Origin: a virus
Taxonomy: Duplodnaviria > Caudoviricetes
Strand: one strand, 5' to 3'
IMG/VR virus record: IMGVR_UViG_3300042154_001807
Location: 1-56,548 of that record
DNA length: 56,548 nucleotides
The notes beneath the pieces were generated by a model. That model did no database searches, was not told where the DNA came from, and saw only the letters and a list, made by a program, of their open reading frames with translations. Position 1 is the stretch's first letter. Each line of letters starts with the position of its first letter. Positions 274-47,808 of the stretch are shown one piece after another. The translations under genes were made by a program, and so were the position numbers.

Positions 274-829
274 TGCTTAATACTGTATTCGGAATGACAA
301 GACCGCCAGTCAAGCCTTGGCAATCATAAAATGCTGTCGAATCAATGTTCGTAACTGTGTTTCCAAAGTGCAAATTAGTAATGAGCATATTGCTGGATTT
401 CCAAGAAGTAGGAATCGTTGCAGCAAAAGTTATGTCAAACTCTCCACCTCCACTTACGATAGTTGGGTCAGGAATGGATGTTGAAATAATACTCCATACG
501 GCTGCACTTGTAGTAGCGTCAGAGCATTGATACATATCGCCGTTCTCCAGCACCCACCAACTACCAGCAAAGAAGCCTTGTGTTTCGTCATTGTAATTCG
601 ATGGAGCGACAAACTGCATGTCCGTAAGCCTAATGGCTTCAGAAGTTGATTGACCACGATAGTAGTTCGATCCTAGCGACCAATCTTTTTTATAGTCAGC
701 AGTGCACACTTGGCGAATGCCACCGATAGGTGCTTCTTGGATTTTACTTTCATTAAAAAAGTCAAGAATACCACCTGTAATATTTTTCAGGAGCTTGCTA
801 ATGTTTTCTGTTAGGTTAATATCACTCAT
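1..829 (-). CDS. N-terminal part of a BspA/TpLRR (LRR_5) repeat protein; continues across the circular junction to 55506 (~532 aa in total)
   Basis: Manual translation from ATG 829: MSDINLTENISK...AFYDCQGLTGGLVIPNTVLSIGINAFQQCIGLTSLDLGTSVTSIGDGAFAYC. The frame stays open to base 1 and is in frame with 55506..56548. Confidence 0.85.
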   Translation of the reverse strand, partial: MSDINLTENISKLLKNITGGILDFFNESKIQEAPIGGIRQVCTADYKKDWSLGSNYYRGQSTSEAIRLTDMQFVAPSNYNDETQGFFAGSWWVLENGDMYQCSDATTSAAVWSIISTSIPDPTIVSGGGEFDITFAATIPTSWKSSNMLITNLHFGNTVTNIDSTAFYDCQGLTGGLVIPNTVLSIGINAFQQCIGLTSLDLGTSVTSIGDGAFAYCTNISGDLIIPNTVTTIANSAFYSCTSFAGTLTIGTSVTSISDNAFFDCNFTGDLIIPDL

Positions 830-28415: not shown

Positions 28416-28493
28416 TGGTTGTAGGGGTGGAATTTGAATCCACATACTCTACGTCATGAGCGTAGCGTCTTACCAGTCGACATTCACCCTGCT
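28416..28493 (-). tRNA. tRNA with CAT anticodon (Met/fMet/Ile2), atypical acceptor stem
   Basis: Anticodon arm CTACG-CTCATGA-CGTAG, T arm GTGGA-TTCAAAT-TCCAC, encoded ACCA; mismatches at pairs 1:72 and 3:70. Confidence 0.8.
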
Positions 28494-31663: not shown

Positions 31664-32188
31664 TCACTCGTCCGAATGCACCCATGGGCAGCACTGTCTC
31701 AGCCGTCTGGCTGGGTGCCTGAGCTTCCTCAGTGCCCGTGCCTCCACCTGACGGATGCGCTCACGGGTGACGCGCAGCTGACGACCTATCTCCTCGAGGG
31801 TCCGAGAGTATCCGTCACCGAGACCGAACCGAAGGACTAGCACCTCGCGCTCACGGGGCAGCAGAACCGACATCTGATCCCAGATGAATCTGGTATCGAT
31901 TTCAGAGACGCTGTCACCACAGTAATGGCGCTCCTCAGCAACCTGCTGAGCCTCGTCGCAGGACAGGTCTACGACCAGTATCGAAGCGTCGACAATGACG
32001 TGCCTGAGACCTAACGCCTTCACTATCTTTCGTGCTTGAAGCACCGTCGCTGGGATCCTCCCGTGCATGATGTTGTCCATCACCGTCACCGCTATCCTCG
32101 ACTGTCTGGAGAAATCCTCCCAGCTCAGTCCCGTCTGATGGATCGCAGCCTTCAGCGCTGCGTTCTCGCTCTTTGTTATTGTGTTCAT
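31664..32188 (-). CDS. XRE-like HTH fused to sigma-70 region 4
   Basis: C-terminus [50 protein letters not shown] is RpoD region 4-like; no region 2. Confidence 0.85.
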
Positions 32189-32859
32189 CTTGTTAGAATT
32201 GTTTTCACGCTGCTCATTCCCCAGTCGCCACCTTGACGTGTTGGGATTGCCCGAGCGTTCAACTCGGCTGCGATCTTCGCGTAGCTCATGCGCTTGTCCT
32301 GACCTACTGGTTTGCGACGAAGCGAGCGCATCAGGTCAATGATGTCCTGCTCTCCTGCGTTGAACCCATACGGCTTCTGACCCTCGCACTTGCCTGTCTC
32401 TTCACGCTTGCGCTGCCGTGCCGCGCGGAGCTTGCGGACCAGACTGTTTTTCTCCAGCTCAGAGAACACCGCTTGCATCTGGATGATTGCCTTCTTCATC
32501 GGATCTCCCTGAATCGCAGCGGTGATGTCTTCACCAGTGTCGGCAGAGATCAACGTGATGCCTTTCGATGCGAGGAACACCAAGATAGCGTCCTGCACGA
32601 CGTAGGCTCGAGACAGACGTGTCAGGTTCTCAACGATGATCGTGCGAACCCCGTTGTCGAGGATCGCTGAGATCATGTCTTGAAACGCTGGACGGTCACT
32701 CCACGTTGAGTCTCCAGTAACACCCTCCTCGACATACTCGGTCGAGATGGTGGCTCCCATCAACTTCGCCTGACGATCGATAGCTGCACGCTGACGGGGG
32801 AACCCGTCGCCTTCGATCTGACTTTTCCCGCTAACTCTGAGGTATGAAAATGCTTTCAT
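32185..32859 (-). CDS. Serine recombinase (resolvase catalytic domain plus short recombinase DNA-binding domain)
   Basis: YLRVS catalytic motif, 'DRPAF', 'LTRLSR', 'PYGF', '[16 protein letters not shown]'. Confidence 0.9.
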
Positions 32860-33394: not shown

Positions 33395-33644
33395 ATAAAA
33401 AAGCTACGTGCGCGTCACGCACGCGCGAGGGCTGGACATAAGTTTTTAGCCGACCCCTCACCCGATCGCGCAACAACTGTTCAGTTGATCAGTATTAAAA
33501 CGAATGTTTAAATCAAATGATTAAGAGTTCGCCAATTGCGTCAGGATCCAATTTAAGGCATGGTTGACCCGTCTTGGGTGTGTCGAGATGGTTATCCCCC
33601 TGATACGGTCGTGGCGACCCCGTGGCGCTAAACTGGCGAGCTAC

Positions 33645-33752
33645 TGATTTGAGATTGGTGATTGCTGATTGGTGTTGTTGGCTGATGATTGATTGGTTGA
33701 TTGGTTGGTTGATTAATTGTTGATTGATTGATGATTGATTGATGATTGATTA
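33645..33752 (+). repeat. Strand-biased GATT/GGTT low-complexity tract at the strand switch
   Basis: Runs such as gattgattggttgattggttggttgatt...gattgatgattgatt. Confidence 0.8.
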
Positions 33753-33888
33753 CTTTATCTACTCTATACTTATCATTATAGTATTACATGTATTTGTTAG
33801 TGCCCCCCTACAAGGGGGCACACAATACAAATACATTAAATAGACAATAGTAAATAGAGAATAAGAATAATAGAGAGGATGAATATTT

Positions 33889-34844: not shown

Positions 34845-34893
34845 TTGATAACGTAAGTATTTCCGCTATGGTTCACCTGTCACCGCGAGTGAC
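34845..34893 (+). promoter_or_regulatory. Early promoter P1 plus leader hairpin
   Basis: TTGATA-16-TATGGT, then GTCAC-CGCGA-GTGAC. Confidence 0.55.
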
Positions 34894-34902
34894 CACAATA
34901 TT

Positions 34903-35112
34903 ATGAACACTACTACCGACACATTGACGACAGCATCGAAAGTTAAAAAAGGCGAATACGTTCGCTTCTCCAACACTGACACAGCACCTGTCTGGGTCAA
35001 AGGTGATTATGACCGCTCTTCGAAGAAGCACAGCTTCTCAAAAGCAGATGACATGAACCGTGAGGTGTTCCTGAAATCAACAGCGAAAGTTTTCGTTGGT
35101 TTTGAATATTAA
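34903..35112 (+). CDS. Small early protein
   Basis: 69 aa after the promoter. Confidence 0.7.
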   Translation: MNTTTDTLTTASKVKKGEYVRFSNTDTAPVWVKGDYDRSSKKHSFSKADDMNREVFLKSTAKVFVGFEY

Positions 35113-35154
35113 TCCCTAACACAGACCGAACTACTAACACTAACGAAACACAAT

Positions 35155-35346
35155 ATGAAAAGAACACGGATGCTAACATACTGCGAAAATTTACGTGACG
35201 TTATCACGATTCACGAACTAGTCGATAATTCAATTATCGCCACAACTTTTGACAAAGTCACTGGCAATTGCACATTTATCACCGACATGGATAGTGAGTG
35301 CCGCAAGATTCTTGACAATCACGCAGATACAGTGGTTTGCAGATAA
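35155..35346 (+). CDS. Small early protein
   Basis: 63 aa, A/C-rich leader. Confidence 0.55.
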   Translation: MKRTRMLTYCENLRDVITIHELVDNSIIATTFDKVTGNCTFITDMDSECRKILDNHADTVVCR

Positions 35347-35412
35347 ACAACAAACAGACTGTAACGCGCTAATTTTAACACAACCAAACCGAACCAAACC
35401 AAACAACACAAT

Positions 35413-35832
35413 ATGAGCAACAACAACATCGAACTCGAAGCCATCACAACAGTAGCAAACGCAGTTTACATCGCCTTTTATGCGGCGATAATGAACGCAC
35501 CAAACACCCCAGAATTCAATCGCCTTCGCGAGGTCAATGATGATCTCCGCAAGGCGATTGTTCGTGCAAAGAATCACTCCGAACCTGTTAAGTCAGTCAC
35601 TCAATCAGTCGCAGACACCGTCTGCAATATTATGCTCGGTGAGCGCTTGCCAGTCGACCTGACCATTCGGCACTCAGAGCATGTGCAAACCATTCCAGCA
35701 GGTCGGATGTTTACACGCACGCTATGCCGCGATGTAGGGGTCGCGTTGTTCGAGGGTCGCACCGTTTACGGAGACGGATGCGAGAAGTTTCTATCCCCAT
35801 TGGCTAAGTTGGTTCAAGCACTGCGTGCGTAA
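35413..35832 (+). CDS. Hypothetical early protein
   Basis: 139 aa, A/C-rich leader. Confidence 0.6.
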   Translation: MSNNNIELEAITTVANAVYIAFYAAIMNAPNTPEFNRLREVNDDLRKAIVRAKNHSEPVKSVTQSVADTVCNIMLGERLPVDLTIRHSEHVQTIPAGRMFTRTLCRDVGVALFEGRTVYGDGCEKFLSPLAKLVQALRA

Positions 35833-35851
35833 TCTCTAACCACCAACTACT

Positions 35852-36088
35852 ATGAACACCGTATCCGATATCCGAGACCAGAAAGCACGCATGAGCGGAG
35901 ATCACGAAGCGTGGATTAAAGGAAAGCAAATCGCAGCATACGAAGCAGCGCGTAAAGCATACCTGCAAGCCAACCCAGACGTGGGCACGCTGATCCGCGA
36001 CGGGGTAGAGATATTCTACCGCAACCTAACACCTTTGCACCTTGGTCAGACCAAGGAGTTTTACCCATCCACCGTGATAACACAATGA
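35852..36088 (+). CDS. Hypothetical early protein
   Basis: 78-aa ORF. Confidence 0.6.
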   Translation: MNTVSDIRDQKARMSGDHEAWIKGKQIAAYEAARKAYLQANPDVGTLIRDGVEIFYRNLTPLHLGQTKEFYPSTVITQ

Positions 36089-36351
36089 ACAGACACCTTA
36101 TGTATCTTCCTATGAACACCACCAGTGAGTTCCAGAACCAGTTCCAAAGCATGCTCAAGACAGCGATCTCCGACAAGGCACGCGAATTGGCTGCTGGAGG
36201 CACTACAGGGATCAGTATCGTCAACCTGAGCCAGATTGTCATGAACGACGGTCTGCGCTACGCTGACGGGGCACCTCGCGACCGCAGCGGGTATGTCAGA
36301 GAATTCGAGTCAGCAGTCCGCGCGGCAGATTTACCAATTGATATATTATGA
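36085..36351 (+). CDS. Hypothetical early protein
   Basis: ATGA-coupled. Confidence 0.55.
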   Translation: MNRHLMYLPMNTTSEFQNQFQSMLKTAISDKARELAAGGTTGISIVNLSQIVMNDGLRYADGAPRDRSGYVREFESAVRAADLPIDIL

Positions 36352-36530
36352 ACAAACACACACCGAAAAATTGGGTAGTAAACTACCGTGAACCGTCCTC
36401 CATTGGCAGGGCATTCTGGGAGATCACTGACGGCTTAGACAAGCCGATAGCATTTGTCACCGAACCGCAGCCAAGATCCCGCGAGGAGATGGCTGCTATA
36501 GCTAAAGCGAAAGGAGGGGCAGCGCTATGA
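36348..36530 (+). CDS. Hypothetical early protein (KHTP..W type)
   Basis: ATGA-coupled. Confidence 0.55.
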   Translation: MNKHTPKNWVVNYREPSSIGRAFWEITDGLDKPIAFVTEPQPRSREEMAAIAKAKGGAAL

Positions 36531-36724
36531 TCCTAGAACTAGCTATTTCAGGAGCCGCATTTGGGATTCTTGGAGCCTATTGTCTAGCAAAGGCAGCTTC
36601 GATGAAACCACCTAATCGAGGGATCCAAGTTGGCGGCGTTAAGCCGTTTGAATCGCGCAGTATTCAGAATAGGCTGGCACTTGGACTGCTGGCACAAAAA
36701 TCTAACAAAAACAAGAAAAAATAA
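36527..36724 (+). CDS. Small membrane protein
   Basis: Hydrophobic N-terminus; ATGA-coupled. Confidence 0.5.
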   Translation: MILELAISGAAFGILGAYCLAKAASMKPPNRGIQVGGVKPFESRSIQNRLALGLLAQKSNKNKKK

Positions 36725-36725
36725 T

Positions 36726-37001
36726 ATGAGTGAAAAAGAAATAACAACAGACAACGGTGGGTCGGCGTTTCCAACAACTGGCTTCGATAGCCCAAATCAT
36801 GGGTGGCAACACGGGCAAGAAGGTATGACACTACGCGACTACTTCGCGGCGGCGGCTTTGACTGGAGAGGTTGGCGGCGAAGATTTTGGTGGTGAGCTAG
36901 CACAACTAAGAAGCCATGAAAACGCAAGGTTGATGGCGAGGAGAGCATATATGCTAGCGGACGCAATGCTGGCAGCAAGAAAGGAGGGCAACCAGTCATG
37001 A
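36726..37001 (+). CDS. Conserved phage protein with GG.AFP / GMTLRDYFAA / AY..ADAML motifs
   Basis: Widespread small phage family recognised by its motifs; start MSEKEI. Confidence 0.75.
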   Translation: MSEKEITTDNGGSAFPTTGFDSPNHGWQHGQEGMTLRDYFAAAALTGEVGGEDFGGELAQLRSHENARLMARRAYMLADAMLAARKEGNQS

Positions 37002-37630
37002 GAAACGTAAACTGTCCGAAGACAAAAATCTACGTTCGCTGCGATGCGTTTGGTGGGTCTCCTGAAGAGTTTGAACCAGCGTGGTTGGTGTCCGTAAGAG
37101 CGATGCGTAACCGACCACTATGCTTCCAAGCATGGATTGAAAAGTATGCAGCGTGCTACGACAAGATTCCACCTCAGTGTATCTACTGGTATAAGCCTGA
37201 CGCAGACCACAAAGCGCTACCACTTCACAAGATACAGATGTGGGAGTGCCTCTCTGGATCTATCGAAATTTGGCGAAAGGATCAACTCAACGATGTTCCG
37301 ATGCTAGTGAACCTCGGAAAGGGTATGGATCCAATCGGAGGTCATTATTGGTTTACTATCGACTTCCTGCCCGAAGGACAGGCTCAAGGATTGTTTGACG
37401 TGGGCGACTCCGAGCTGCTCGAAGAACACAAAGAAGGTAATGTGATCAAACTGGACAACGGGCAGATTGCAATCTACCCAAACAACCGACTCAAATGGCT
37501 TCCAGTATCTCTGACAGGAAAAGAAGCACCGAGCGCAATTCCTCCGTGGGATGTGGCAACCAACGCCCAATGGGACGAGTGGTGGGCAGACTCAGACGAA
37601 ATCTTGGGGGACGCAAAATGGGCATATTAA
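36998..37630 (+). CDS. Conserved phage hypothetical protein
   Basis: 'FTID...SE...EHK..N.IKLDNGQ.A.YPNNR..W' pattern recalled from aquatic phages. Confidence 0.7.
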   Translation: MRNVNCPKTKIYVRCDAFGGSPEEFEPAWLVSVRAMRNRPLCFQAWIEKYAACYDKIPPQCIYWYKPDADHKALPLHKIQMWECLSGSIEIWRKDQLNDVPMLVNLGKGMDPIGGHYWFTIDFLPEGQAQGLFDVGDSELLEEHKEGNVIKLDNGQIAIYPNNRLKWLPVSLTGKEAPSAIPPWDVATNAQWDEWWADSDEILGDAKWAY

Positions 37631-38388
37631 AAATTATGAACGCAACATACGGACTAGAATTATTCGAACTCGCACTCCGCAAAGAGACCGAGTCAATGAC
37701 CGAGGCAGAGAGAGCGGTATACGCTCAGCTGTCCGAACACCCAGTCACTCAGAAGCAGATAGCTGAGAGTGAGCGCTGGATAGGCACACACCCTTGGCAT
37801 GATGGATACGAGTCGGACACGACTACCAGAGCTGTTAGGCAGATAGTTCAGGATCTCAGGACCAAGCACAAGGTGCCTGTGCTGTCAGACCGTCGTGGCT
37901 ACTTTTTCAGTAACGACGAAGAGCAGCGTAAGGCATTTCTCGAGAGGCATGTCCGCAGTGCGACAGCGTCGATGAAGACATCGATCGAGACATACAATTC
38001 GATGAAGCACATCGTCGGAGAGCATGCATTTTTTGAATCGATGTTAGAACTCATAAACCGTGAAGACAACAGCCAAGCACAGGAAAGCCCAGCGTTGCCT
38101 GATGCGGGATGTTCGGACACACCGAGAACAGATGCTAAAATGTTTCCCGCATGGGCATGGGACACGCACACAATGGAATACGTGCCTCACGGCATCGGAT
38201 TTCCTGCCGAGGATGCCCGTAAATTAGAGCGCGAACTAGCAGCAGTCACCGAGCAGCGGGACACGCTGGCAGAGGCACTCCGAAAACTAGCTGATTGCGA
38301 TTGGGTAATTACACTGCCAGATCGGATGGACGCAGTAAGAACTATCGCCAACGAAGCCCTCCAATCCATAACCCCGAACGAACTATGA
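37618..38388 (+). CDS. Winged-HTH-like protein fused through an attC-like site to a TPRTD/ARKLERE module
   Basis: 'TTRAVRQIVQDLR...VLSDRRGYFF'; the segment NSQAQESPALPDAGCS is encoded by 38064..38117. Confidence 0.6.
   Translation: MGILKIMNATYGLELFELALRKETESMTEAERAVYAQLSEHPVTQKQIAESERWIGTHPWHDGYESDTTTRAVRQIVQDLRTKHKVPVLSDRRGYFFSNDEEQRKAFLERHVRSATASMKTSIETYNSMKHIVGEHAFFESMLELINREDNSQAQESPALPDAGCSDTPRTDAKMFPAWAWDTHTMEYVPHGIGFPAEDARKLERELAAVTEQRDTLAEALRKLADCDWVITLPDRMDAVRTIANEALQSITPNEL
38064..38117 (-). mobile_element. attC-like site A (54 bp, inner stem slightly decayed)
   Basis: Minus strand: TCCGAAC-ATCCC-GCATCAGG-caacgctgggcttt-CCTGTGC-TTGGCT-GTTGTCT. Confidence 0.75.
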
Positions 38389-38795
38389 ACACAGACACAC
38401 CGAAAATAATACAATTACTAATGTCACCGAATGACTCCGTATGGCAAGGCGTGTTGCTTGGTCTTGGAGATGATGGAGTTACATATCATTGCCAAGGGGA
38501 TACATGGCAACCTTACATACCTCCGTTGAATCCACAAGATAAAGCAGCCGAGCTTGCCTCCTTCACCGAGCAGCGGGACGAAGCGCGAATTGAATTAGAG
38601 AAATACACAACTGACAGCGAAGACGATGCGCTTTATAACGTGCGAAGATTGCGTAAAGAACTAACCGCCGTCACCGAGCAGCGGGACGAAGCGCGTCGCC
38701 TTGCCGAGAAATACCGCCACTTATCATGCGACAGCCTAGAGGAAGCCGATGAAACGCTGCTGCCTTGGGAAATAACAACCCCGAACGAACTATGA
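38385..38795 (+). CDS. Hypothetical protein with TEQRD repeats
   Basis: Probable start MNTDTPK, ATGA-coupled. Confidence 0.6.
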   Translation: MNTDTPKIIQLLMSPNDSVWQGVLLGLGDDGVTYHCQGDTWQPYIPPLNPQDKAAELASFTEQRDEARIELEKYTTDSEDDALYNVRRLRKELTAVTEQRDEARRLAEKYRHLSCDSLEEADETLLPWEITTPNEL

Positions 38796-38841
38796 ACACA
38801 CCAACCGACTCCGAGGCGTTGCCTCTCACGACTTGTTCGTC
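38780..38841 (-). mobile_element. Partial/hybrid attC-like site C
   Basis: R''-L'' arm GACGAAC-AAGTC-GTGAGAGG-CAACGCC is nearly identical to site G, but the matching L' is missing. Confidence 0.55.
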
Positions 38842-38974
38842 TTGTTTGAATTGGGAGCCACGCCAGAACAGCGGCATTGGTGACGGATACTGCCAGATCT
38901 TCGATAAATTCACCGATCCTGACCACGGCAAACGCTGCACCGCATTTGAGCCGAACGCACAAGCAAAGCCATGA
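38792..38974 (+). CDS. Small Cys-rich cassette protein
   Basis: MNTPTDSEALPLTTCSSC..W...GYC...C..F; starts and ends inside attC-like sites. Confidence 0.6.
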   Translation: MNTPTDSEALPLTTCSSCLNWEPRQNSGIGDGYCQIFDKFTDPDHGKRCTAFEPNAQAKP

Positions 38975-39080
38975 GCCATTGTGAAAACATCGACGGAAAG
39001 TGCGGAGCGTCGTGGTGTGACTGCGACTATCAGCGGCGTAAAAAGTCAGTTGGATCATTGGCTTCTGCGCCTTGTTCGCG
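38950..39080 (-). mobile_element. attC-like site D (131 bp)
   Basis: Minus strand: CGCGAAC-AAGGC-GCA(G)AAGC-CA(A)TGA...TCATG-GCTTTGC-TTGTGC-GTTCGGC. Confidence 0.8.
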
Positions 39081-39333
39081 GTTGCGGATACCTCGCCACC
39101 TGCTCGAACTGCGCATTCGCAACGCCATAGCCGACAAGGAAATGGTAACGGCGATGGCAAACCGTGACCTGCAATGCGGGGACGGGTGGCGGTGCGACTA
39201 TGCCGAGTGGCATCGTGAAGTCTCAAAGGAGATCGAGGAACTATTCATTCTTTCCGCGAACAGCCAAGCACAGGCACGCCCAGCGTTGCCTGATGCGGAA
39301 TGTTCGGAACAACCAACAAACGAAACAAAATGA
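38971..39333 (+). CDS. Hypothetical cassette protein
   Basis: 120 aa; starts inside site D and reads through site F. Confidence 0.6.
   Translation: MSHCENIDGKCGASWCDCDYQRRKKSVGSLASAPCSRLRIPRHLLELRIRNAIADKEMVTAMANRDLQCGDGWRCDYAEWHREVSKEIEELFILSANSQAQARPALPDAECSEQPTNETK
39255..39308 (-). mobile_element. attC-like site F (54 bp)
   Basis: Minus strand: TCCGAAC-ATTCC-GCA(T)CAGG-CA(A)CGC-TGG-GCGTG-CCTGTGC-TTGGCT-GTTCGCG. Confidence 0.85.
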
Positions 39334-39689
39334 ACGACACACCGACACCGAGGACGGATGCTGAACACGCTCAATTTCCGATGGGAGGATTTACGTTAGA
39401 CTTTGCCAGAAAACTTGAACGCGAGCTTGCCGCCGCACGGGAGGAATTAGCCGAACTAAAGGCGGAATACGGAACGTGGTGGGCGCAGAAACGCATCGCA
39501 ATTGATGAGCTAAAGGAAGTCACCGAGCAGCGAGACAGGCTGGCTGAGGAGTTGAAAAATATCAAATGTGCTTTTTGCGGGGAAACGCAACAAACAGAAA
39601 ATGAAAAAGCATATTGCCAAGAGTTTAGCAATACACTAGGTGAGTTACCAACTATGGCTATGTGGCTACTAACTAAAAGGAAGCCATGA
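39330..39689 (+). CDS. TPRTD/ARKLERE-type coiled-coil protein
   Basis: Probable start MNDTPTPRTD, ATGA-coupled. Confidence 0.6.
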   Translation: MNDTPTPRTDAEHAQFPMGGFTLDFARKLERELAAAREELAELKAEYGTWWAQKRIAIDELKEVTEQRDRLAEELKNIKCAFCGETQQTENEKAYCQEFSNTLGELPTMAMWLLTKRKP

Positions 39690-39840
39690 ACCTAGAACTC
39701 TGGCAAATCGTCGGCAATCAAGGAGGTGATCGATGAGCGACCAAAGCATAAAACTGTTAGAAAAGATCCTCGACAAGGCAAAATCTCTAACGAAATAGAA
39801 CTTTCTTTCGTTGTAGAATATAGGATTTTGAAAATACTTG

Positions 39841-39890
39841 TTTACAACGGAAGCGTTTTTGTTATGTTTCGTTTGTCGCCGCGAGCGACA
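39841..39890 (+). promoter_or_regulatory. Early promoter P2 plus leader hairpin
   Basis: TTTACA-16-TATGTT, then TGTCGC-CGCGA-GCGACA. Confidence 0.55.
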
Positions 39891-39915
39891 CCAACAACAC
39901 TAATCAAAACACATT

Positions 39916-40164
39916 ATGAAAACTACAATCATCCACGTCGATCACCGCAAAGTTGAAGTCGAAATCAGAAACGCTCCAAACGGTCGCAAGCTTGTAATCG
40001 CTATTCGCGATGCGGGTGCATCGGAAATGTGGGATCAAAAACCTAATCCGATTGGCGCATATATACGCCAGCAGTGGAATAAAACTTACATCTACAAGCG
40101 TTGCGCGGGATGGGTATCCCTAAGCGCATCGCAAATTGGATTTCTTGACGAAATTACAGTCTAA
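39916..40164 (+). CDS. Small early protein
   Basis: 82 aa after P2. Confidence 0.65.
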   Translation: MKTTIIHVDHRKVEVEIRNAPNGRKLVIAIRDAGASEMWDQKPNPIGAYIRQQWNKTYIYKRCAGWVSLSASQIGFLDEITV

Positions 40165-40216
40165 CTAATTCAAAAACAGGGGCGCGGCTGAATACGCGCA
40201 ACCGAAACACAAAATT

Positions 40217-40462
40217 ATGACAATCACAAACGCAATTAAAAAAGTTACCAAGGCAGGTTTCAAAGTCACACAAAATGGGAAACGCTATTCAGCAAAAAAA
40301 GATGGCATAAATTATCTTGTTGAGTTTTCACAAAACGGCAGTGAAGACATAATCACCTGCATCGGAGTGCGTCACAAAAACGATAATAGCGATAGTCAAT
40401 GCGACTATTGCGCCACGATTTTTACTGATAACCTATCGCAAGCAATCAGACTTGCTCACTAA
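40217..40462 (+). CDS. Small early protein
   Basis: 81-aa ORF. Confidence 0.65.
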   Translation: MTITNAIKKVTKAGFKVTQNGKRYSAKKDGINYLVEFSQNGSEDIITCIGVRHKNDNSDSQCDYCATIFTDNLSQAIRLAH

Positions 40463-40470
40463 CTAAAAAT

Positions 40471-40683
40471 ATGGAACCAGAAGCCGCCGCCGCGAGAATA
40501 TGCTGCGAGTATAATCTCCTAGCAGAAGACTCGGATATTAAGACTATCTGCATGAGCGCTGACGACCTGCACAGTCTAGCGCTTGACTGGCAGCGCAAGA
40601 CCAAAATCCTTCAGGATCTGTTAGACCACGTAGCTGGAATTCAATCTAACGTAAACGACTTAGCCAAGATTTTAAAATCATGA
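40471..40683 (+). CDS. Small early protein
   Basis: 70-aa ORF. Confidence 0.55.
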   Translation: MEPEAAAARICCEYNLLAEDSDIKTICMSADDLHSLALDWQRKTKILQDLLDHVAGIQSNVNDLAKILKS

Positions 40684-41279
40684 ACGACACCAAGACAAAC
40701 GAGGAAATGATCAGGCTCCTTCTCACACCGATCAGCGAACTGAGCAAAGACGAAGTGTCATTCTTCGTCGGGAACAGGGAGCTTCTAAGAAATCTGAGGA
40801 ATTCTCCAGAGTATTATCGGGGTCTTGCTGCGGATCTCAGGACGAAGTCGGTAATCCCTAACGGGATGCGTCTCACTGGTCTCACAGAACACGTCACGCA
40901 TGCCAGTGGTAAACGCAAGACAGTATGCACGTCGGCTGCTCTGGCATTCTTCAACGTGCCACCAAGCGCATACCACTACAGTGGTCATGCAGAGCAAGAC
41001 AACGCAGTCCTGCGCAGGCACGGCTGGAGTGCCCGTAGCCGTAAATCAGCGTTCAAGGTGAAGGGTGGCAAGGCATCGCTCGCCAGCGTCATCAGGGGCA
41101 TCAAGGATCGAGGAGAAGACGGGCACTACAAGCTCAGCATCAGACTGACCAAGGGTCAGGGATACCACTGCATCGTGATCGACTCCAAAGGCAAGATCGT
41201 AGTCGACACTGCGAGCAGCGCCACCACACCTCGCGCCACCGTGCGTGACATTTACATCATTCAACGAATAAAAAAATAA
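40680..41279 (+). CDS. Hypothetical protein, possibly papain-like (Cys...His...Asp)
   Basis: 'TVCTSAAL', 'YHCIVID', 'VVDT'. Confidence 0.45.
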   Translation: MNDTKTNEEMIRLLLTPISELSKDEVSFFVGNRELLRNLRNSPEYYRGLAADLRTKSVIPNGMRLTGLTEHVTHASGKRKTVCTSAALAFFNVPPSAYHYSGHAEQDNAVLRRHGWSARSRKSAFKVKGGKASLASVIRGIKDRGEDGHYKLSIRLTKGQGYHCIVIDSKGKIVVDTASSATTPRATVRDIYIIQRIKK

Positions 41280-41281
41280 TT

Positions 41282-41521
41282 ATGAACACACGACCAATAC
41301 ACGAAATAGCGTCCGAGATTTATCAGGACTGGGGAAGCAAAGTGAACTTCGCGGCGAAGCCATACCTGAAGGCGATGACCTTCTTGGACAAGCCGACGGA
41401 CAAATACATCCACGACAGCGGCAGAGACATCGTCCTGCGCTTCCTGTGCAATGCCACGACCTACCGTGGAGAAACCGCACGACGGGTGAAGGCAGAACTT
41501 AAAAAACTGTTAGGGATTTAA
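41282..41521 (+). CDS. Conserved small phage protein
   Basis: 'RPIHEIA.EI..DW..VNFAAKPYL.AM...FL.NA...RGE.AR.VKAELK'. Confidence 0.7.
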   Translation: MNTRPIHEIASEIYQDWGSKVNFAAKPYLKAMTFLDKPTDKYIHDSGRDIVLRFLCNATTYRGETARRVKAELKKLLGI

Positions 41522-41522
41522 C

Positions 41523-41753
41523 ATGAAAACCAAGCCGATGAGAATCAAAGCTTTCTGGTCACTTTACGGTGTCCGCATCCACCGTGCAGGTCGCAACCTA
41601 GACCTCGGTGGAGGCGATGGGGCTTATCACGTAGCAGCTTTTAATTTACTAAATCTGTTAGAGAGAGAGTGCTACACTGGCGAGATTGAATTTTACGGAA
41701 ATTGTTCAAAAGAAGTGGAAAAAGAATTCAACGAATACAAGTCAATCGGCTGA
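41523..41753 (+). CDS. Small early protein
   Basis: 76-aa ORF. Confidence 0.55.
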   Translation: MKTKPMRIKAFWSLYGVRIHRAGRNLDLGGGDGAYHVAAFNLLNLLERECYTGEIEFYGNCSKEVEKEFNEYKSIG

Positions 41754-41793
41754 AACCATTTTAGAATATAGCGAAAATAAATGAAAATAATTA

Positions 41794-41821
41794 TTTACAT
41801 CGGAAGTATTTTCGCTATGAT
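41794..41821 (+). promoter_or_regulatory. Early promoter P3
   Basis: TTTACA-16-TATGAT with a CGGAAGTATTT spacer like P1 and P2. Confidence 0.55.
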
Positions 41822-41843
41822 GAGCGCGTCAACCAACAACATT

Positions 41844-42239
41844 ATGAACACACCTACGAATCCAACAGCAGCACAAATTGCACAATACACAGCAACCGTC
41901 ACCCAAGTGGGCAAAAAATGGGTGCATACTTTGATTGACGAAAATGGACAAGTGATTGCAAAGCGTAGCACAGACAACTGCACACCATACCGTGCAGCGT
42001 GTGTTACAGTTGTCACTCTTAATTCTCGCATTCACTCCCTCAAAAGAGAGATTGTAAAATCTCGTTCAAAGTCATTCATTGAGTCCTGCAAACACGACAT
42101 TCAAGAAGCACAGGCAGATATTGCAGCAGGTGTTGATGGCAACCAGTATTTTGGTTTTATTGTTTCATGGACAAGAGGTCTTTCTGGGTCCGCCAGTTAT
42201 GGATCAATCATTGCCAGACTGGTGCCATGCAAAGCATAA
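41844..42239 (+). CDS. Hypothetical early protein
   Basis: Probable start MNTPTNPT downstream of P3. Confidence 0.6.
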   Translation: MNTPTNPTAAQIAQYTATVTQVGKKWVHTLIDENGQVIAKRSTDNCTPYRAACVTVVTLNSRIHSLKREIVKSRSKSFIESCKHDIQEAQADIAAGVDGNQYFGFIVSWTRGLSGSASYGSIIARLVPCKA

Positions 42240-42261
42240 ATCAACTAACATACCAGCACTC

Positions 42262-42291
42262 ACCTCACCGATTGAATTCGGTGGGGTTTTC
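42262..42291 (+). terminator. Possible intrinsic terminator
   Basis: CCTCACCGA-loop-TCGGTGGGG followed by TTTT. Confidence 0.5.
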
Positions 42292-42301
42292 TGGGCGTAA
42301 C

Positions 42302-42538
42302 ATGAAAATACTAATTGCCAACATCCCGATCGGTCTTCGCCTTGCTCTCAAGGCTGGAGAATTCGCAGCAATCAGACTCAGCTCTGGAGCAAACAACAGT
42401 GTCTTGATCAGAGACGGTCGAGCCTACCAGTTCGAGAACACGATGCGCAGCAAGATGCCGTCTTTGCCTGCGACATCGCTACCAGTAAAAGTAAAAAGAG
42501 TCTCAGAAAAATCTATCACATTCGACCTATTGCCATGA
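42302..42538 (+). CDS. Hypothetical protein
   Basis: Probable start MKILIANIP. Confidence 0.55.
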   Translation: MKILIANIPIGLRLALKAGEFAAIRLSSGANNSVLIRDGRAYQFENTMRSKMPSLPATSLPVKVKRVSEKSITFDLLP

Positions 42539-42852
42539 ACATCCTATCATCAAAACGTCGTGGCGTAAATGCCGCCCTGAACGCATCTCCCAGCCTGTCT
42601 GGAAACATGCGTCACGGGTCAACCACCTCTGGGCTACAGGAGCTTACACGCATCCTTGCAGCGCACGGTTTCAGCCTTGACATTGTCCGAGGAGATACCA
42701 TCATCGGTGACCGAGGGATTGTCACCCTGCCATTCAGACCGACCTCGGACGACTCTGCCACGGAGCTGCCACAAGTCACTAATTCATTCGCGGTCTTTTC
42801 TTGGACGAAGCTCGACGAAGATCGCACTGAAGTCCTCGCATACCTCTCCTAA
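42535..42852 (+). CDS. Hypothetical protein
   Basis: 105 aa, ATGA-coupled. Confidence 0.6.
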   Translation: MNILSSKRRGVNAALNASPSLSGNMRHGSTTSGLQELTRILAAHGFSLDIVRGDTIIGDRGIVTLPFRPTSDDSATELPQVTNSFAVFSWTKLDEDRTEVLAYLS

Positions 42853-42866
42853 CAACTAAAATTAAT

Positions 42867-43043
42867 ATGAAAATAACACAGCAATACGCAGACAGAACAG
42901 TCGGGATCATAGCCGCCCAGTCATACCTTGACGAGCGGTTCGCCCCGACCAATAGCAAGCTCGCCAGCGCCTTCATCACGGGTTTAGGCATTGGAATCAT
43001 CATCGCGACCATCATCGGTCTGCTCGTCATCCAACCCAGCTAA
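42867..43043 (+). CDS. Small membrane protein (58 aa)
   Basis: Manual translation; C-terminal hydrophobic stretch GLGIGIIIATIIGLLVI. Confidence 0.5.
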   Translation: MKITQQYADRTVGIIAAQSYLDERFAPTNSKLASAFITGLGIGIIIATIIGLLVIQPS

Positions 43044-43219
43044 TGAAACCTAACAAAAACGCACAGGCACTCGGCGCTCTTGGAAAAGGCATCAAGAAGA
43101 CCATGACCAAGGCAGCGCTTGAGCAGCGCAAGGCTGCTTCCAAGAAGCCAAGGACCACCACTCCAACTAAATCAACAATTGCTCGCAGAGCAAAACTCGG
43201 AATCAAAAACAAATTATGA
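43043..43219 (+). CDS. Small very basic protein (58 aa)
   Basis: Manual translation MKPNKNAQALGALGKGIKKT...; coupled to both neighbours. Confidence 0.55.
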   Translation: MKPNKNAQALGALGKGIKKTMTKAALEQRKAASKKPRTTTPTKSTIARRAKLGIKNKL

Positions 43220-43440
43220 ACGACATCATCGAACACCACACCAAGCAGGAGTCTGCGGCTCAGTCAGAGCTTCAGCAATTGAAAGATCGCGAGTTCAGTT
43301 TAAAGCTGAAGCTGCGGTTTCAGAAAGCTCCAGTCCAGTATCATAGCCGCCACGGTCGAACCCGTGCAGCTATACAACTAAGAATCTCCCAGCACGGTGC
43401 GCTCGCCAGCTACTGGGCAAACAAAATGAAGCGAGCCTAA
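43216..43440 (+). CDS. Hypothetical protein
   Basis: 74-aa ORF. Confidence 0.5.
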   Translation: MNDIIEHHTKQESAAQSELQQLKDREFSLKLKLRFQKAPVQYHSRHGRTRAAIQLRISQHGALASYWANKMKRA

Positions 43441-43445
43441 AATTT

Positions 43446-43543
43446 TCTCTCGCCAGTGCTGAGGCGGCGACTCAGGATAAAGCCCTTGAATGGGACAGAG
43501 TGCCTGCCAGCGATGGCTTAAAAACATGACAACTGGCGAGAGA
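43446..43543 (+). ncRNA. Candidate multibranch structured RNA
   Basis: 12-bp closing stem TCTCTCGCCAGT/ACTGGCGAGAGA encloses CTGAG/CTCAG, CCC/GGG and GCCA-GCGA-TGGC hairpins. Confidence 0.55.
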
Positions 43544-43560
43544 TTCAAATCAAATAAATT

Positions 43561-44676
43561 ATGAACAAAACATTACCACCACAAGAGGTCGAGGTGCTAC
43601 CCACGCTCGAGATGTCGGAAGTCCCACAGGAGTTCCAAGTGAAGATTCGCGCCAGTTTCGGAGACCTGATGCACCAAGCTGATGTGCTTGTTACCAAGGC
43701 TCGAGAAATCGCAGCAATGGGAGAGTCTACCGATCAGGAGAAGCAGGCACGGGAGACCCGTCTGGCGCTCGTCAAGGTGCGGACTAGTGCCGAGAAAACG
43801 CATAAGGACATGAAGCAAGACATCCTTGTGCAAGGTCGTGCGATCGACGGGGCGAAGAACATCGTGATCGCTGCTACCCAGCCGTCCGAGAAGGACATGA
43901 AAGCGATCGAGGATCGTGCCGAGCTACGTGCCCAAGAAGAGCGCGACCGTCTGCACGCTGATCGATACGCTGAGCTGAACCAGTTCACGACCGCATACAA
44001 CACACTCAGCCTCGGTCGCCTGACCGCTGAGGAGTATGCAGCGATGCTTGACAACAGCAAGCTGGCACACGAAGCCAGAATTGCCCGTGAAGAGCGCGAG
44101 AAGGCAGAGCGCGAAGCCGCAGCCAAGGCTGAGGAGGAAGAGCGCCAGCGCATTGCTGCCGAGCGTGTAGAGGCTGAGAAGAAAGCAGCAGCAGAGCGTG
44201 CTGAGCTTGAGGCTAAGGCAAAGCGTGAGGAGGCTGCTCGCAAAGAAGCTGAAGCAGTGATCGCAAAGCAGCAAGCAGAGGCTGAAACCGCTCGCAAAGC
44301 TGCTGCTGCGGCACTAGCCAAGCAGCAGGCAGAGGCTGAGGCAAAGCTCGCAGCAGAGCGTAAGTCTGCGGCAGCGGCTCTTGAGGCTGCGGCAGCGGCG
44401 ATTGAGAAAGCAAAAGCTGAGGCAGCACGGCTTGCAAAGATCGAATCCGATCGATTGGCTGCTGCTCGCGCCGATTCCGAGGCTAAGGAACAGGCTGAGA
44501 AAAAAGCAGCCATTGCTCCTGACAAAGTCAAAATCGCTGAATACGCGAAAGAGATTTTAGGGGTCAGGTTGCCTACTGGCAGCACCGACGATGGGAAAGC
44601 AGCTTGCGCTAAAATCAGCAAGGTCATCGAAACAGCACTCGCTGAAATCCGAACCATTTACACAACACTAAAATGA
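43561..44676 (+). CDS. Long coiled-coil protein of the recombination module
   Basis: Ala/Glu/Lys/Arg-rich; 'AIDGAKN', 'APDKVKI'. Confidence 0.7.
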   Translation: MNKTLPPQEVEVLPTLEMSEVPQEFQVKIRASFGDLMHQADVLVTKAREIAAMGESTDQEKQARETRLALVKVRTSAEKTHKDMKQDILVQGRAIDGAKNIVIAATQPSEKDMKAIEDRAELRAQEERDRLHADRYAELNQFTTAYNTLSLGRLTAEEYAAMLDNSKLAHEARIAREEREKAEREAAAKAEEEERQRIAAERVEAEKKAAAERAELEAKAKREEAARKEAEAVIAKQQAEAETARKAAAAALAKQQAEAEAKLAAERKSAAAALEAAAAAIEKAKAEAARLAKIESDRLAAARADSEAKEQAEKKAAIAPDKVKIAEYAKEILGVRLPTGSTDDGKAACAKISKVIETALAEIRTIYTTLK

Positions 44677-45557: not shown

Positions 45558-45785
45558 ATGACTGACGAAGAAATTGAATTCTTTCAGCGTGAGAGCGCTG
45601 AAAGAAAGCGGATCAAAAAAATGGTTGATGACCTAAACGAAAGCGAGAAAGAGCGCAAGTCGTGGAGCAAATCACAAGAGCATAAAGCACCGTCAATAAC
45701 ACGATCCTATGCTGGCGGCAAAACATCGAAGGTCAAAGGGACTGGAAACTTTGACAGAGAGCAAATCAGATACGAAGGAAAATAA
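45558..45785 (+). CDS. Hypothetical protein
   Basis: 75-aa ORF. Confidence 0.55.
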   Translation: MTDEEIEFFQRESAERKRIKKMVDDLNESEKERKSWSKSQEHKAPSITRSYAGGKTSKVKGTGNFDREQIRYEGK

Positions 45786-45789
45786 TAAC

Positions 45790-46701
45790 ATGCAACCACA
45801 AATCATATACAACTACCCGAGAAAAAATTACTTCGCCCCTCATACTGGCGACCACAAGACACTGCGTGTCAGTAAGTCAATGCTTACCGACTTCGTGCCT
45901 AACCCAGCTGCGTGGCTGCTCATGCCTGTGCGCGAATACACAAAGGCGATGAAGTTCGGAAACCTCGTCGACTGCTTAGCACTGACCCCGACCGAGTTCG
46001 AGAACGAATACACAATCCTCCCATCGCACTACCCGTGCAAGCCGACCAAAATAGATCCTCGGGTAGAGAAACCGTGGAACGCTAATTCAAACTACTGCAA
46101 AGCTTTCGAAGCAGGTGTCGAGCTGGACGGCAAGCAAGCTGTGAAGCAAAGCGACTACCAGCAGGCACTCCAAGCGCTGACCATGCTCATGGCATTCAAG
46201 CCATACTCTGAGATGATGGAAGAGGCATCCACACAGGTTGCTATGTTCGGAGAGATTGTCGAAGAGGGATCTATGACCTTGGCTAAGGCGATGATTGACA
46301 TCGTGCCTAACAAAGGGAAGTGGAAGAGCTGCCTCGTTGACATGAAGACTACCGCTGAGATGTCGGAGCATCACTTTGCCAAGACAGTCGCGAAGTTTGG
46401 ATACCACCGTCAGGCTGCTCTGTATCTCGACCTGTGGAACGCATTGTCTGGTGAGAACCGAGACACGTTCTACATCGTATGGGTTCACAGTAAGGCACCT
46501 TACGAAGTGGCTATGAGACCGATCAGCGCCTCAGCAATTGCCGAGGGTCGTCGCTGGTATCGCAGCGCTCTTCGTCTCTGGAACGAATGCGTTACAACGG
46601 GAGTGTTCCCATCACCATGGGATGATATTGAGACCCCGATAGATTTGCCAGCGTTTGTCGAGTTGACATCGTTGGATGACGAAGAAGAAGAAGAAAACTA
46701 A
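45790..46701 (+). CDS. RecE/exonuclease VIII-like PD-(D/E)XK nuclease (DUF3799)
   Basis: 'SKSML', 'AMKFG', 'KAMID', 'VDMKTT', 'YHRQAALY', 'KAPYEV'. Confidence 0.85.
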   Translation: MQPQIIYNYPRKNYFAPHTGDHKTLRVSKSMLTDFVPNPAAWLLMPVREYTKAMKFGNLVDCLALTPTEFENEYTILPSHYPCKPTKIDPRVEKPWNANSNYCKAFEAGVELDGKQAVKQSDYQQALQALTMLMAFKPYSEMMEEASTQVAMFGEIVEEGSMTLAKAMIDIVPNKGKWKSCLVDMKTTAEMSEHHFAKTVAKFGYHRQAALYLDLWNALSGENRDTFYIVWVHSKAPYEVAMRPISASAIAEGRRWYRSALRLWNECVTTGVFPSPWDDIETPIDLPAFVELTSLDDEEEEEN

Positions 46702-47292: not shown

Positions 47293-47365
47293 ACTATCAT
47301 AGCTCAGAGTAGAGCAGTGGGCTTATAACCCATTGGACAGTGAATTAACGACTCACTTGGTAGCT
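47293..47365 (+). tRNA. tRNA-Ile(TAT)-like gene with a non-canonical T loop
   Basis: D arm GCTC-AGAGTA-GAGC, anticodon arm GTGGG-CTTATAA-CCCAT, T stem AGTGA/TCACT without TTC; no encoded CCA. Confidence 0.6.
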
Positions 47366-47465: not shown

Positions 47466-47551
47466 GGAGAACGCCTCTGTGGAGGCACGCCAATAACGAC
47501 TATGAATACACCAACCAACTCCGAGGCGTTGCCTCCCACAAATTGTTCTCG
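47466..47551 (-). mobile_element. attC-like site G (86 bp)
   Basis: Minus strand: CGAGAAC-AATTT-GTG(G)GAGG-CA(A)CGCC...GGCGTG-CCTCCAC-AGAGGC-GTTCTCC. Confidence 0.85.
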
Positions 47552-47789
47552 GCGTTGCTCGCCGCAGCTATCTAGTTCCGAAACTACGGCATACCGCGCG
47601 GTGGTCGTTGATGCCGATCAAGACGTAATCTGGACGCGAGACGCTCAAAACAACGTCATCGGCTACACGATTACTAACCCAAAGCCCGTCGCGGGTATGA
47701 GGCACATTCTGGACGATGGGAGTCTCTCTGCGCTAGATGTCCAAATTCATTGCGAGAACAGCCAAGATCAATCAGCACGCAGTGACTGA
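47502..47789 (+). CDS. Hypothetical cassette protein
   Basis: Start MNTPTNSEALPPTNCS lies in the loop of site G; the stop lies inside site H. Confidence 0.6.
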   Translation: MNTPTNSEALPPTNCSRRCSPQLSSSETTAYRAVVVDADQDVIWTRDAQNNVIGYTITNPKPVAGMRHILDDGSLSALDVQIHCENSQDQSARSD

Positions 47790-47808
47790 TTGCATCGACA
47801 TGTTCGAT
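47753..47808 (-). mobile_element. attC-like site H (56 bp)
   Basis: Minus strand: ATCGAAC-ATGTC-GAT(G)CAAT-CAG(T)CAC-TGC-GTGCTG-ATTGATC-TTGGCT-GTTCTCG. Confidence 0.85.

Follow-up and report, generated by a model that had tools for sequence, protein, structure and literature searches.

Integron attC sites provide the closest described counterpart of the hairpin analyzed here. [quoted passage not shown] Which base occupies the first extrahelical position is of little importance, a conserved T follows 6–8 nt past it, and the loop (VTS) of short attC sites is GAA. For this reference geometry we relied on Nivina et al. 2016 (PMC5027507) and Bouvier et al. 2009 (PMC2727003). In phages, 17 clusters of attC sites without an integrase were described by Qi et al. 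2023 (PMC9892861), and IntI1 recombined five of six phage attC sites in that study, the phages being virulent. A second related system is formed by the PeSLs of T4-type phages, which are the known case of repeat-mediated gene shuffling in phages (Arbiol et al. 2010, PMC2839356; Comeau et al. 2014, PMC4122927).

The locus is part of a linear virus record of 56,548 bp with a CheckV completeness of 95%; this whole stretch is referred to below as the window. It is a near-complete genome of a lytic-type lake phage, with genes for a major head protein, an SU10-type portal, a terminase, a helicase and a primase. Contigs from three lake-water metagenome runs contain 85–92% of the sampled words of the region, and in the comparisons with phage records neither blastn with positions 37400–39800 (50,697 records) nor tblastn with the portal protein gave any match. 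ARAGORN found no tRNA in the window. A giant ORF (11925–26381) was considered as an N4-like virion RNA polymerase, the type associated with hairpin promoters, and was rejected, as its matches were confined to two PHROGs of unknown function, with none in Pfam. Small plus-strand early genes, P0001–P0005, form one block in which they are linked via ATGA stop-start overlaps, and two genes further along belong to the phage's own recombination functions:

37495–38388, plus strand: P0001, composed of a phrog_2113 N-terminal domain, the linker that contains hairpin copy A and a P0005-like C-terminal domain ending in TPNEL
38385–38795, plus strand: P0002, with an ATGA overlap to P0003
38792–38974, plus strand: P0003, with ATGA overlaps to its neighbours
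38971–39333, plus strand: P0004, 120 aa, containing the entire segment between sites F and D that the initial annotation had proposed as a cassette; its stop overlaps the next ATG (ATGA)
39330–39689, plus strand: P0005, directly after hairpin copy F, a paralogue of the C-terminal part of P0001
44673–45554: AAA_24 protein, one of the phage's own recombination genes
45709–46701: PDDEXK exonuclease, one of the phage's own recombination genes

The ends of P0001/P0002 and P0002/P0003 carry exact 24-nt junction repeats (38370–38393 and 38777–38800), and the junction 17-mer is present in 23 viral stretches. Relatives of P0005 were found at 22 loci by tblastn.

Three copies of a hairpin of approximately 55 nt are present in the window, as scored with covariance model R1:

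38063–38117, plus strand: copy A (site A of the initial annotation), AAC at 38068–38070; 59 bits, E = 1.8e-12
39254–39308, plus strand: copy F (site F of the initial annotation); 70.9 bits, E = 1.8e-15
47752–47808, plus strand: third copy, of a diverged GATC subtype, AAC at 47757–47759; 39.6 bits, E = 1.4e-7

When R1 was run on the window with filters off and E ≤10, it returned these three copies and three weak, unrelated places. In copy F, the AAC occupies positions 39259–39261 and the 5′ box extends to 39270; it is followed by the stem CAGGCA/CGC and a CCA loop (39280–39282), and the 3′ arm contains a bulged T (39286), a bulged A (39293) and GTT (39302–39304). The fragment 39250–39312 folds with a z-score of −3.3 on both strands, and copy F refolded in the rebuild test described below gave a z-score of −3.48, with none of 200 shuffles reaching the same energy. 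Copy A contains two stem mismatches. Copies A and F belong to a 72-nt direct repeat with 82% identity (38068–38139 and 39259–39330; D2). Copy A is translated through within ORF 37495–38388, so the upstream domain is fused to the P0005-like domain. The third copy, absent from the initial annotation, is located 10 nt 5′ of the ATG of the helicase gene. ORF 47502–47789 runs into it in the same frame and terminates at a TGA in the 3′ arm; a homologue search with this ORF returned only the ORF itself.

The alignment comprises 38 distinct copies, taken from contigs of phages and metagenomes. They were selected from 50 regular-expression candidates, of which 12 rows from 11 loci were dropped by eye (L053, L067, L071, L116, L135, L152, L156, two rows of L170, L177, L204 and L208, truncated). 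The search pattern fixes alignment columns 10–20 and 39–45, so the evidence of covariation comes from columns 21–38 only. The 5′ half of the consensus consists of (G)AACAG, CCAA, GCA, a 6-bp stem, a further stem of 2–4 bp and a loop of 3–4 nt, and the 3′ half consists of the return arm with a bulged T and then a bulged A, TGC, GAC and CTGTT(C). Pairing is observed in 92.7% of cells in the 38 copies, compared with 25–47% when the 3′ partners are slid by one to three columns. Changes on both sides occur at eight pairs (69 cells), and none of 500 shuffles attained the observed values; for each of the five inner pairs, both sides are changed in 10–16 sequences. Identical helices were predicted independently by RNAalifold. 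The hairpin structure is real, and its inner stem covaries strongly. Template switching in quasi-palindromes is able to mimic compensatory change. Among the wobble cells, approximately 11 are of the G-T type and 6 of the A-C type, with no clear strand bias. The loops are mostly GCA, GAA, GGA, GTA, AAA or CCA, or GNNA tetraloops, and GNA triloops are typical of stable DNA hairpins.

When the element is compared with attC sites, it is apparent that several independent features of the fold are common to both. An attC site is an imperfect single-strand hairpin of 57–141 nt, to which the element corresponds with a core of 55–57 nt. AAC and GTT are almost invariant and pair as in the attC R box, with standard pairs at columns 6–53, 7–52 and 8–51 in 37, 38 and 37 of the 38 copies, respectively. 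Extrahelical bases are found on the GTT arm, where column 42 is a bulged A and column 35 a bulged T, 7 nt apart; if the 7-mer on the GTT side is taken as the start and bases are counted inward from its outer end, they fall, by our own count, on positions 16 and 23. The tip is mostly of the GNA type, where the available descriptions of attC give GAA. With AAC on the 5′ arm and the bulges on the 3′ arm, the coding strand therefore resembles the attC bottom strand. Sites F and A of the initial annotation are, by covariation and by attC geometry, genuine attC-like folded elements.

The unpaired central spacer between the R and L boxes of attC has a counterpart in an internal loop of the element, CCAA opposite GAC or GGAA, which falls short of the usual length since AAC is followed by two further base pairs (AG/CT) in most of the copies. 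In other respects the element departs from attC. The extended attC consensus RYYYAAC/GTTRRRY is absent: 24 of 36 copies have G at position −4, position −5 is A or C, and GTT is mostly followed by C. The outer R positions do not pair (pairing at only 4/20), unlike in attC, and the inner boxes show far stronger sequence conservation than those of most attC sites. Gene organization differs as well. The ORFs of a cassette array are on the top strand, 5′ of attC, whereas those associated with the element are on the strand that resembles the bottom strand, so that gene polarity is reversed. An array usually contains one promoterless ORF per attC, whereas copies of the element are often many genes apart, and, unlike in attC cassettes, the ORF is translated through AAC in a fixed frame. 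An integron has intI, attI and Pc close by, and a cluster of attC sites without an integrase (CALIN) has at least two attC sites and no intI; with three copies and no PF00589 protein, the layout of the window would resemble a CALIN solely on the premise that its sites count as attC. The phage CALINs of Qi et al. (PMC9892861) are similar to the element in the lack of an integrase nearby, in the lytic type of the phages and in the small flanking genes of unknown function. Our literature searches retrieved no account of coding-strand, in-frame attC-like sites; the supplementary tables of Qi et al. may list such phages.

The position at which the element would act as a junction is indicated by protein modules that end at its AAC. 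One of them is the core of P0004:

39070–39261, plus strand: P0004 core (PCSRLRIPRH...EELFILSAN), running from GTTCGCG to the AAC of copy F

A search with P0004 gave 16 proteins at E ≤1e-3 among 19 candidates. The core is present, with 78–98% identity, in 11 metagenome proteins whose N-terminal leaders and C-terminal tails vary, and in 10 of the 11 the shared part ends in the Asn encoded by AAC, after which the sequences diverge completely. The leader of P0004 (residues 1–25) is shared with P0017, which is otherwise a different protein. Because both leaders and tails differ, 39070–39261 is a discrete module that occurs with other neighbours, and the expectation of the initial annotation that the same unit should be found beside other sequences was borne out for this segment. 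AAC 39259–39261 is a true module boundary and the predicted crossover point of copy F. A search of viral contigs with the P0004 alignment gave 37 pattern matches, none of which was confirmed (P0006–P0016 are known as proteins only), and an apparent P0004 homologue in genome G002 was rejected since the match was confined to the shared tail. The second family is that of the YqaJ-type gene 5′ of the copy at L046. Among its 32 closest homologues, Asn is found at or next to the junction in 28, at the junction column in 19 and one column earlier in nine; it is missing from four. More than 15 different tails follow the junction. Four close relatives of the window (L001–L004, 94–96% identical) separate from it immediately after the AAC of copy A and rejoin it at 39716; in P0001, they match only residues 1–196. 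L054, the sole alternative tail seen as DNA, contains a plain hairpin without the GTT partner.

From the geometry of the hairpin and the divergence after AAC, we infer a mechanism of the attC type. The best reading of the element, to which we assign roughly an even chance, is that of attC-type junction sites with reversed gene polarity; it is supported by the gene families because they diverge exactly after the Asn of AAC. The element would then be a folded single-strand attC-type recombination site in which the coding strand plays the part of the bottom strand. Its fixed frame, together with the stop in the 3′ arm and the ATG close by, would turn the site into a standard plug-in junction at which translation also stays coupled. 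An integron integrase recombines attC at AA|C; for the element, the enzyme may likewise be an integron integrase, supplied by the host, or else a different structure-specific recombinase. A PF00589 tyrosine recombinase was found in none of six element-bearing phage records, four of which have a completeness of at least 92%, and a Y1 HUH enzyme (Y1 transposase) in none of four. The window contains a serine recombinase gene (32185–32859, 224 aa), which is not present in the other element-bearing genomes. An excision joint at 38069/39261 was not observed in contigs of four lake-water runs, an assembly product from which rare forms are dropped.

The element family is widespread in uncultured lake phages. 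Exact-pattern scans of viral contigs gave two genuine cases among three stretches and, in a second scan, 27 stretches; the same kind of scan of metagenome contigs gave at least 118 stretches, of which a minority were genuine. A loose regular-expression census of extra copies was dropped because of false positives. In a set with one genome for each of 185,579 species, there were 35 pattern matches, all judged false, and no genuine copy; two of the 35 scored only 26.6 and 25 bits with R1. A search with the 82-nt element against phage records and PLSDB plasmids gave matches at chance level (E 0.6–0.7). Other phage genomes contain one to six copies each, on a single strand per genome. When these genomes and the window are taken together, copies are 0.3 to 8.5 kb apart, with one to approximately 20 genes between them; in the window, the spacings are 1.2 kb (∼4 ORFs) and 8.5 kb (∼20 ORFs). 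One contig of run X4 contains 39259–39319 with both flanks different.

The main rival explanation is that the element acts at the RNA level, as a gene-boundary device in polycistronic early mRNAs, and that shuffling is due to homologous recombination between copies. Its function could be that of a hairpin for protein binding or processing, or that of an adaptor for translational coupling, and the likeness to attC would be coincidental. We consider this a serious possibility that falls short of being probable. It agrees with the behaviour of the element at gene boundaries, where the coding strand carries it in every case. With AAC read as an Asn codon, the frame stays free of stops for at least 24 codons upstream in 35 of 38 copies; 26 copies clearly use this frame for coding, eight are ambiguous and four use another frame (binomial p 2e-9 versus one third), which means that upstream ORFs enter in one frame in 26 of 30 unambiguous cases. 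In the same frame, a stop codon follows within 12–96 nt in 36 of 38 copies, 21 of these stops being the TGA of a conserved CTGATGC, and an ORF-opening ATG is located within −12 to +70 nt, also in 36 of 38. Two copies (L121 and L006) contain a mini-ORF of their own. Moreover, the window and G002 have in common an 87-nt piece, in which the element is followed by its spacer and by the opening codons of the next gene; its identity is 95%, although the flanks cannot be aligned. Such identity across diverged contexts is what direct purifying selection predicts, and a direct function, for example at the RNA level, fits this conservation as well as mobility does. The exchange itself could also proceed without site-specific recombination, since the PDDEXK exonuclease and the AAA_24 protein encoded by the phage make homologous recombination available to it, and the PeSLs show that repeat-mediated shuffling and mini-circles exist (PMC2839356, PMC4122927).

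Several results speak against an RNA-level role with homologous recombination. No Rfam family was found: at the gathering score, the window contained two tRNA-like matches elsewhere and nothing at the element, and at E ≤10 the sole match in 37900–39500 (39123–39159, minus strand) was unrelated to it. A scan for promoters and terminators gave no match at any of the three copies, so the signature of such signals is absent. Homologous recombination fails to explain how two families came to be joined at the same Asn to many unrelated sequences. In 12 pairs of copies, the type of hairpin follows the downstream flank, and no pair was found in which it follows just the upstream one (these pairs are not independent and represent approximately 11 events), although the 5′ and 3′ boxes are similar in length; among pairs with a common downstream flank, the upstream flanks were unrelated in 19 of 20. 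The agreement of several independent geometric parameters with attC, and tips of the GNA type known from stable DNA hairpins, also argue against it.

The PeSLs themselves share more with the element than the use of repeats. Both are short conserved stem-loop repeats that border small accessory genes and mark points of gene exchange between related phages, and in both, recombination between copies could yield mini-circles. A PeSL, however, is intergenic, combines a sigma-70-like early promoter with a terminator and acts through homologous recombination, whereas the element has neither a promoter nor a T-run and is itself read, in frame, as the 3′-terminal part of the upstream ORF. The attC-like bulges and the divergence at one fixed codon are features of the element. 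A further parallel is offered by the start-associated sequences (SAS) of Cluster K mycobacteriophages, conserved repeats located just 5′ of many start codons, some of which contain inverted repeats (extended SAS hairpins). Their sequence and phage group are different. To our knowledge, no attC-like geometry has been reported for SAS hairpins.

The model put forward in the initial annotation was a minus-strand cassette of approximately 304 nt (39260→38957) between site F and the next site, D, the latter serving as the attC of the cassette itself, with the R boxes of the two sites matching each other as expected if circularization restores a perfect R stem.

38951–39080: site D, spanning the end of P0003, the ATGA overlap and the P0004 leader; not detectable as a site

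The sequence matches on which the model was built are present. GTTCGCG is found on the plus strand at 39074–39080 and its exact reverse complement, CGCGAAC, at 39255–39261, and the partner within site F itself is imperfect, as GTTCGGA (39302–39308) is complementary to CGCGAAC at five of seven positions. The pair described for sites D and C does have one mismatch (GCCGAAC at 38950–38956 versus GTTCGTC at 38833–38839), and CCCGAAC was confirmed at 38373 and 38780, in both cases within the exact 24-nt repeat (family D6). In a post hoc count, the free outer letters of the proposed sites match in 4/6 between neighbours versus 0/8 within sites, and 38967–38975 can be paired with 39055–39064 in a 9-bp stem that has one bulged T.

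As the signature of a cassette, the match of the R boxes is not supported. GTTCGCG occurs 11 times on both strands of the window, with 9.1 expected, and 27 of 100 shuffles contain at least 11. Each R-box pair has only two free letters because the CGAAC/GTTCG core is fixed by the way the sites were picked. The 6-mer CCGAAC is enriched in the window (39 versus 26 expected, a count reached by none of 100 shuffles), locally because coding modules repeat. The pattern also does not generalize to intact elements. For the outer four R positions of five consecutive intact pairs, the agreement is 4/20 with the cassette partner and 4/20 with the own partner, and in 13 element-plus-gene units, those of 31 units with an in-frame terminal AAC, 8/52 outer R positions match versus 10.9 with shuffled partners.

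Folding gave the same picture. Site D (38946–39085) has z-scores of −0.06, −0.13 and −0.29 against shuffles, no better than chance on either strand, and the values for the region of site C and for site B are −0.59 and +1.37; R1, with filters off and E ≤10, found no match at sites B to E. Within site D, only 39055–39078 resembles an element, namely its 3′ arm (16/24; repeat D3). Site D thus lacks both the significant fold and the covariance-model match of the 130-nt attC for which it had been taken. Circularization of the segment in silico lowered the energy of site D from −19.3 to −23.1 kcal/mol (z −1.71, equalled by 8 of 200 shuffles), a gain that the chosen 7-bp match supplies by construction, and the interior of the rebuilt site remained unstructured. 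Copy A rebuilt with the left arm of copy F improved from a z-score of −1.43 to −2.8, because of one extra G-C pair that is present in most copies anyway. The proposed minus-strand polarity is not supported either, as the bulges and loops of the real copies identify the plus, coding strand as the one that resembles the attC bottom strand. In addition, the segment is located within a conserved plus-strand gene, and a unit length of 304 is not divisible by 3. The mini-cassette between F and D as drawn is not real and the model is already largely refuted, which leaves it very improbable; of its outline, the right edge (AAC 39259–39261) and the left edge hold as module boundaries.

The weakest alternative, that there is no nucleic-acid element and the repeats are paralogous coding sequence with a linker peptide (NSQAQ..PALPDAxCS), could appeal to the translation of both copy A and copy F and to other coding modules that the neighbouring genes have in common (VTEQRD, TPNEL), but it is already refuted by the covariation and is improbable in the extreme, as base pairing is conserved where the peptide encoded by the stem is not, conservation 5′ of AAC reaches third-codon positions and is therefore at the nucleotide level (T at −10 in 28/36 copies, G at −4 in 24/36), and the element follows 28 unrelated protein clusters (28 blastp clusters among 31 upstream proteins).

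The attC-type reading can be extended to a broader proposal, which we advance tentatively and which is on balance unlikely: lake phages of several kinds may share a plug-and-play form of gene exchange, in which attC-like hairpins on the coding strand serve both as structure-specific recombination sites and as standard translational junctions. The site would be cut at the in-frame AAC, and the hairpin would supply a stop before and a restart after the junction. Accessory and even replication genes could in this way be swapped between unrelated phages without a phage integrase.

If the hairpins are working attC-type sites, integron-style exchange would extend beyond bacterial platforms to lytic freshwater phages. 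Gene trading would then be routine in these phages, with a gene polarity and an in-frame junction that have not been described for integrons, and the mosaic, 'hyperplastic' early regions of phages could be traced to a concrete mechanism that can be tested. If the element acts instead as RNA, it would represent a structured motif, widespread but not yet described, by which neighbouring genes are coupled. In both cases, recombination boundaries are marked by the element, which makes it useful for reading the mosaicism of phages.

A third copy of the attC-like imperfect hairpin element lies near the helicase gene. It is diverged and of the GATC subtype, and an ORF at 47502–47789 runs in frame into it. 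Gene P0003 (38792–38974, plus strand) is paralogous to the N-terminus of this ORF (MNTPTNSEALPP..).

47752–47808: third element copy, with the helicase gene starting 10 nt further downstream
L118 (another element-bearing contig), ~1037–1000, minus strand: ACGACTA tandem repeats directly 3′ of the element
L136 (likewise), ~547–580, plus strand: the same repeats directly 3′ of the element

In these two contigs, three to four tandem repeats of the 7-nt unit ACGACTA separate the element from the next start codon. Within the window, stretches at 38816–38839 and 39055–39078 resemble the element's 3′ arm, with 71% and 67% identity, respectively, and lack a matching 5′ arm. The former sits at the 5′ end of P0003, the latter at that of the core of gene P0004 (39070–39261). 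Both may be relics of decayed element copies that are now translated (..ALPxxxCS..).

The window also encodes a serine recombinase, which was not found in three other element-bearing genomes. For a lytic-type phage, this is odd.

32185–32859, minus strand: serine recombinase, 224 aa, with a Resolvase domain and the start of a Recombinase domain
31664–32188, minus strand: ORF with sigma-70 region 4, in ATGA overlap with the recombinase gene

In the early region (34903–43561), ATGAAC (Met-Asn) opens at least 15 genes, and the sequence upstream of these starts is A/C-rich, without a Shine-Dalgarno motif. The junction ..CCGAACGAACTATGAACAC.. was found again in 23 other viral stretches.

34845–34900 and 39841–39895 (also 41794–41843): putative sigma-70-like promoters (TTGATA/TATGGT, TTTACA/TATGTT)

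Each promoter is followed by a conserved hairpin, GTCRC-CGCGA-GYGAC, immediately ahead of the gene start. At 39.8 kb, a terminator-like stem precedes promoter and hairpin, so the layout resembles PeSL, the T4-type cassette of early promoter and terminator stem-loop. A run of short TGATTGG/TGATTGA-type repeats (33640–33750), followed by a perfect GC-rich hairpin (33800–33822), occupies the divergent control region between minus- and plus-strand gene blocks and may be an origin or operator array.

11925–26381, minus strand: single ORF of 4818 aa, adjoining the portal gene
47293–47365, plus strand: tRNA-like match (Rfam, 43.2 bits)
28422–28490, minus strand: tRNA-like match (Rfam, 37.9 bits)

The giant ORF matched no Pfam family and only two PHROGs, both weakly and both of unknown function. 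ARAGORN calls neither tRNA-like match.

38233–38275, 38550–38592, 38658–38700 and 39507–39549: coiled-coil coding module (..VTEQRD..), four copies in three adjacent genes

In the lake metagenome contigs, depth is 210–400 over 38242–38375 versus ~18 alongside; this coiled-coil module is therefore carried by many phages of the same lakes.
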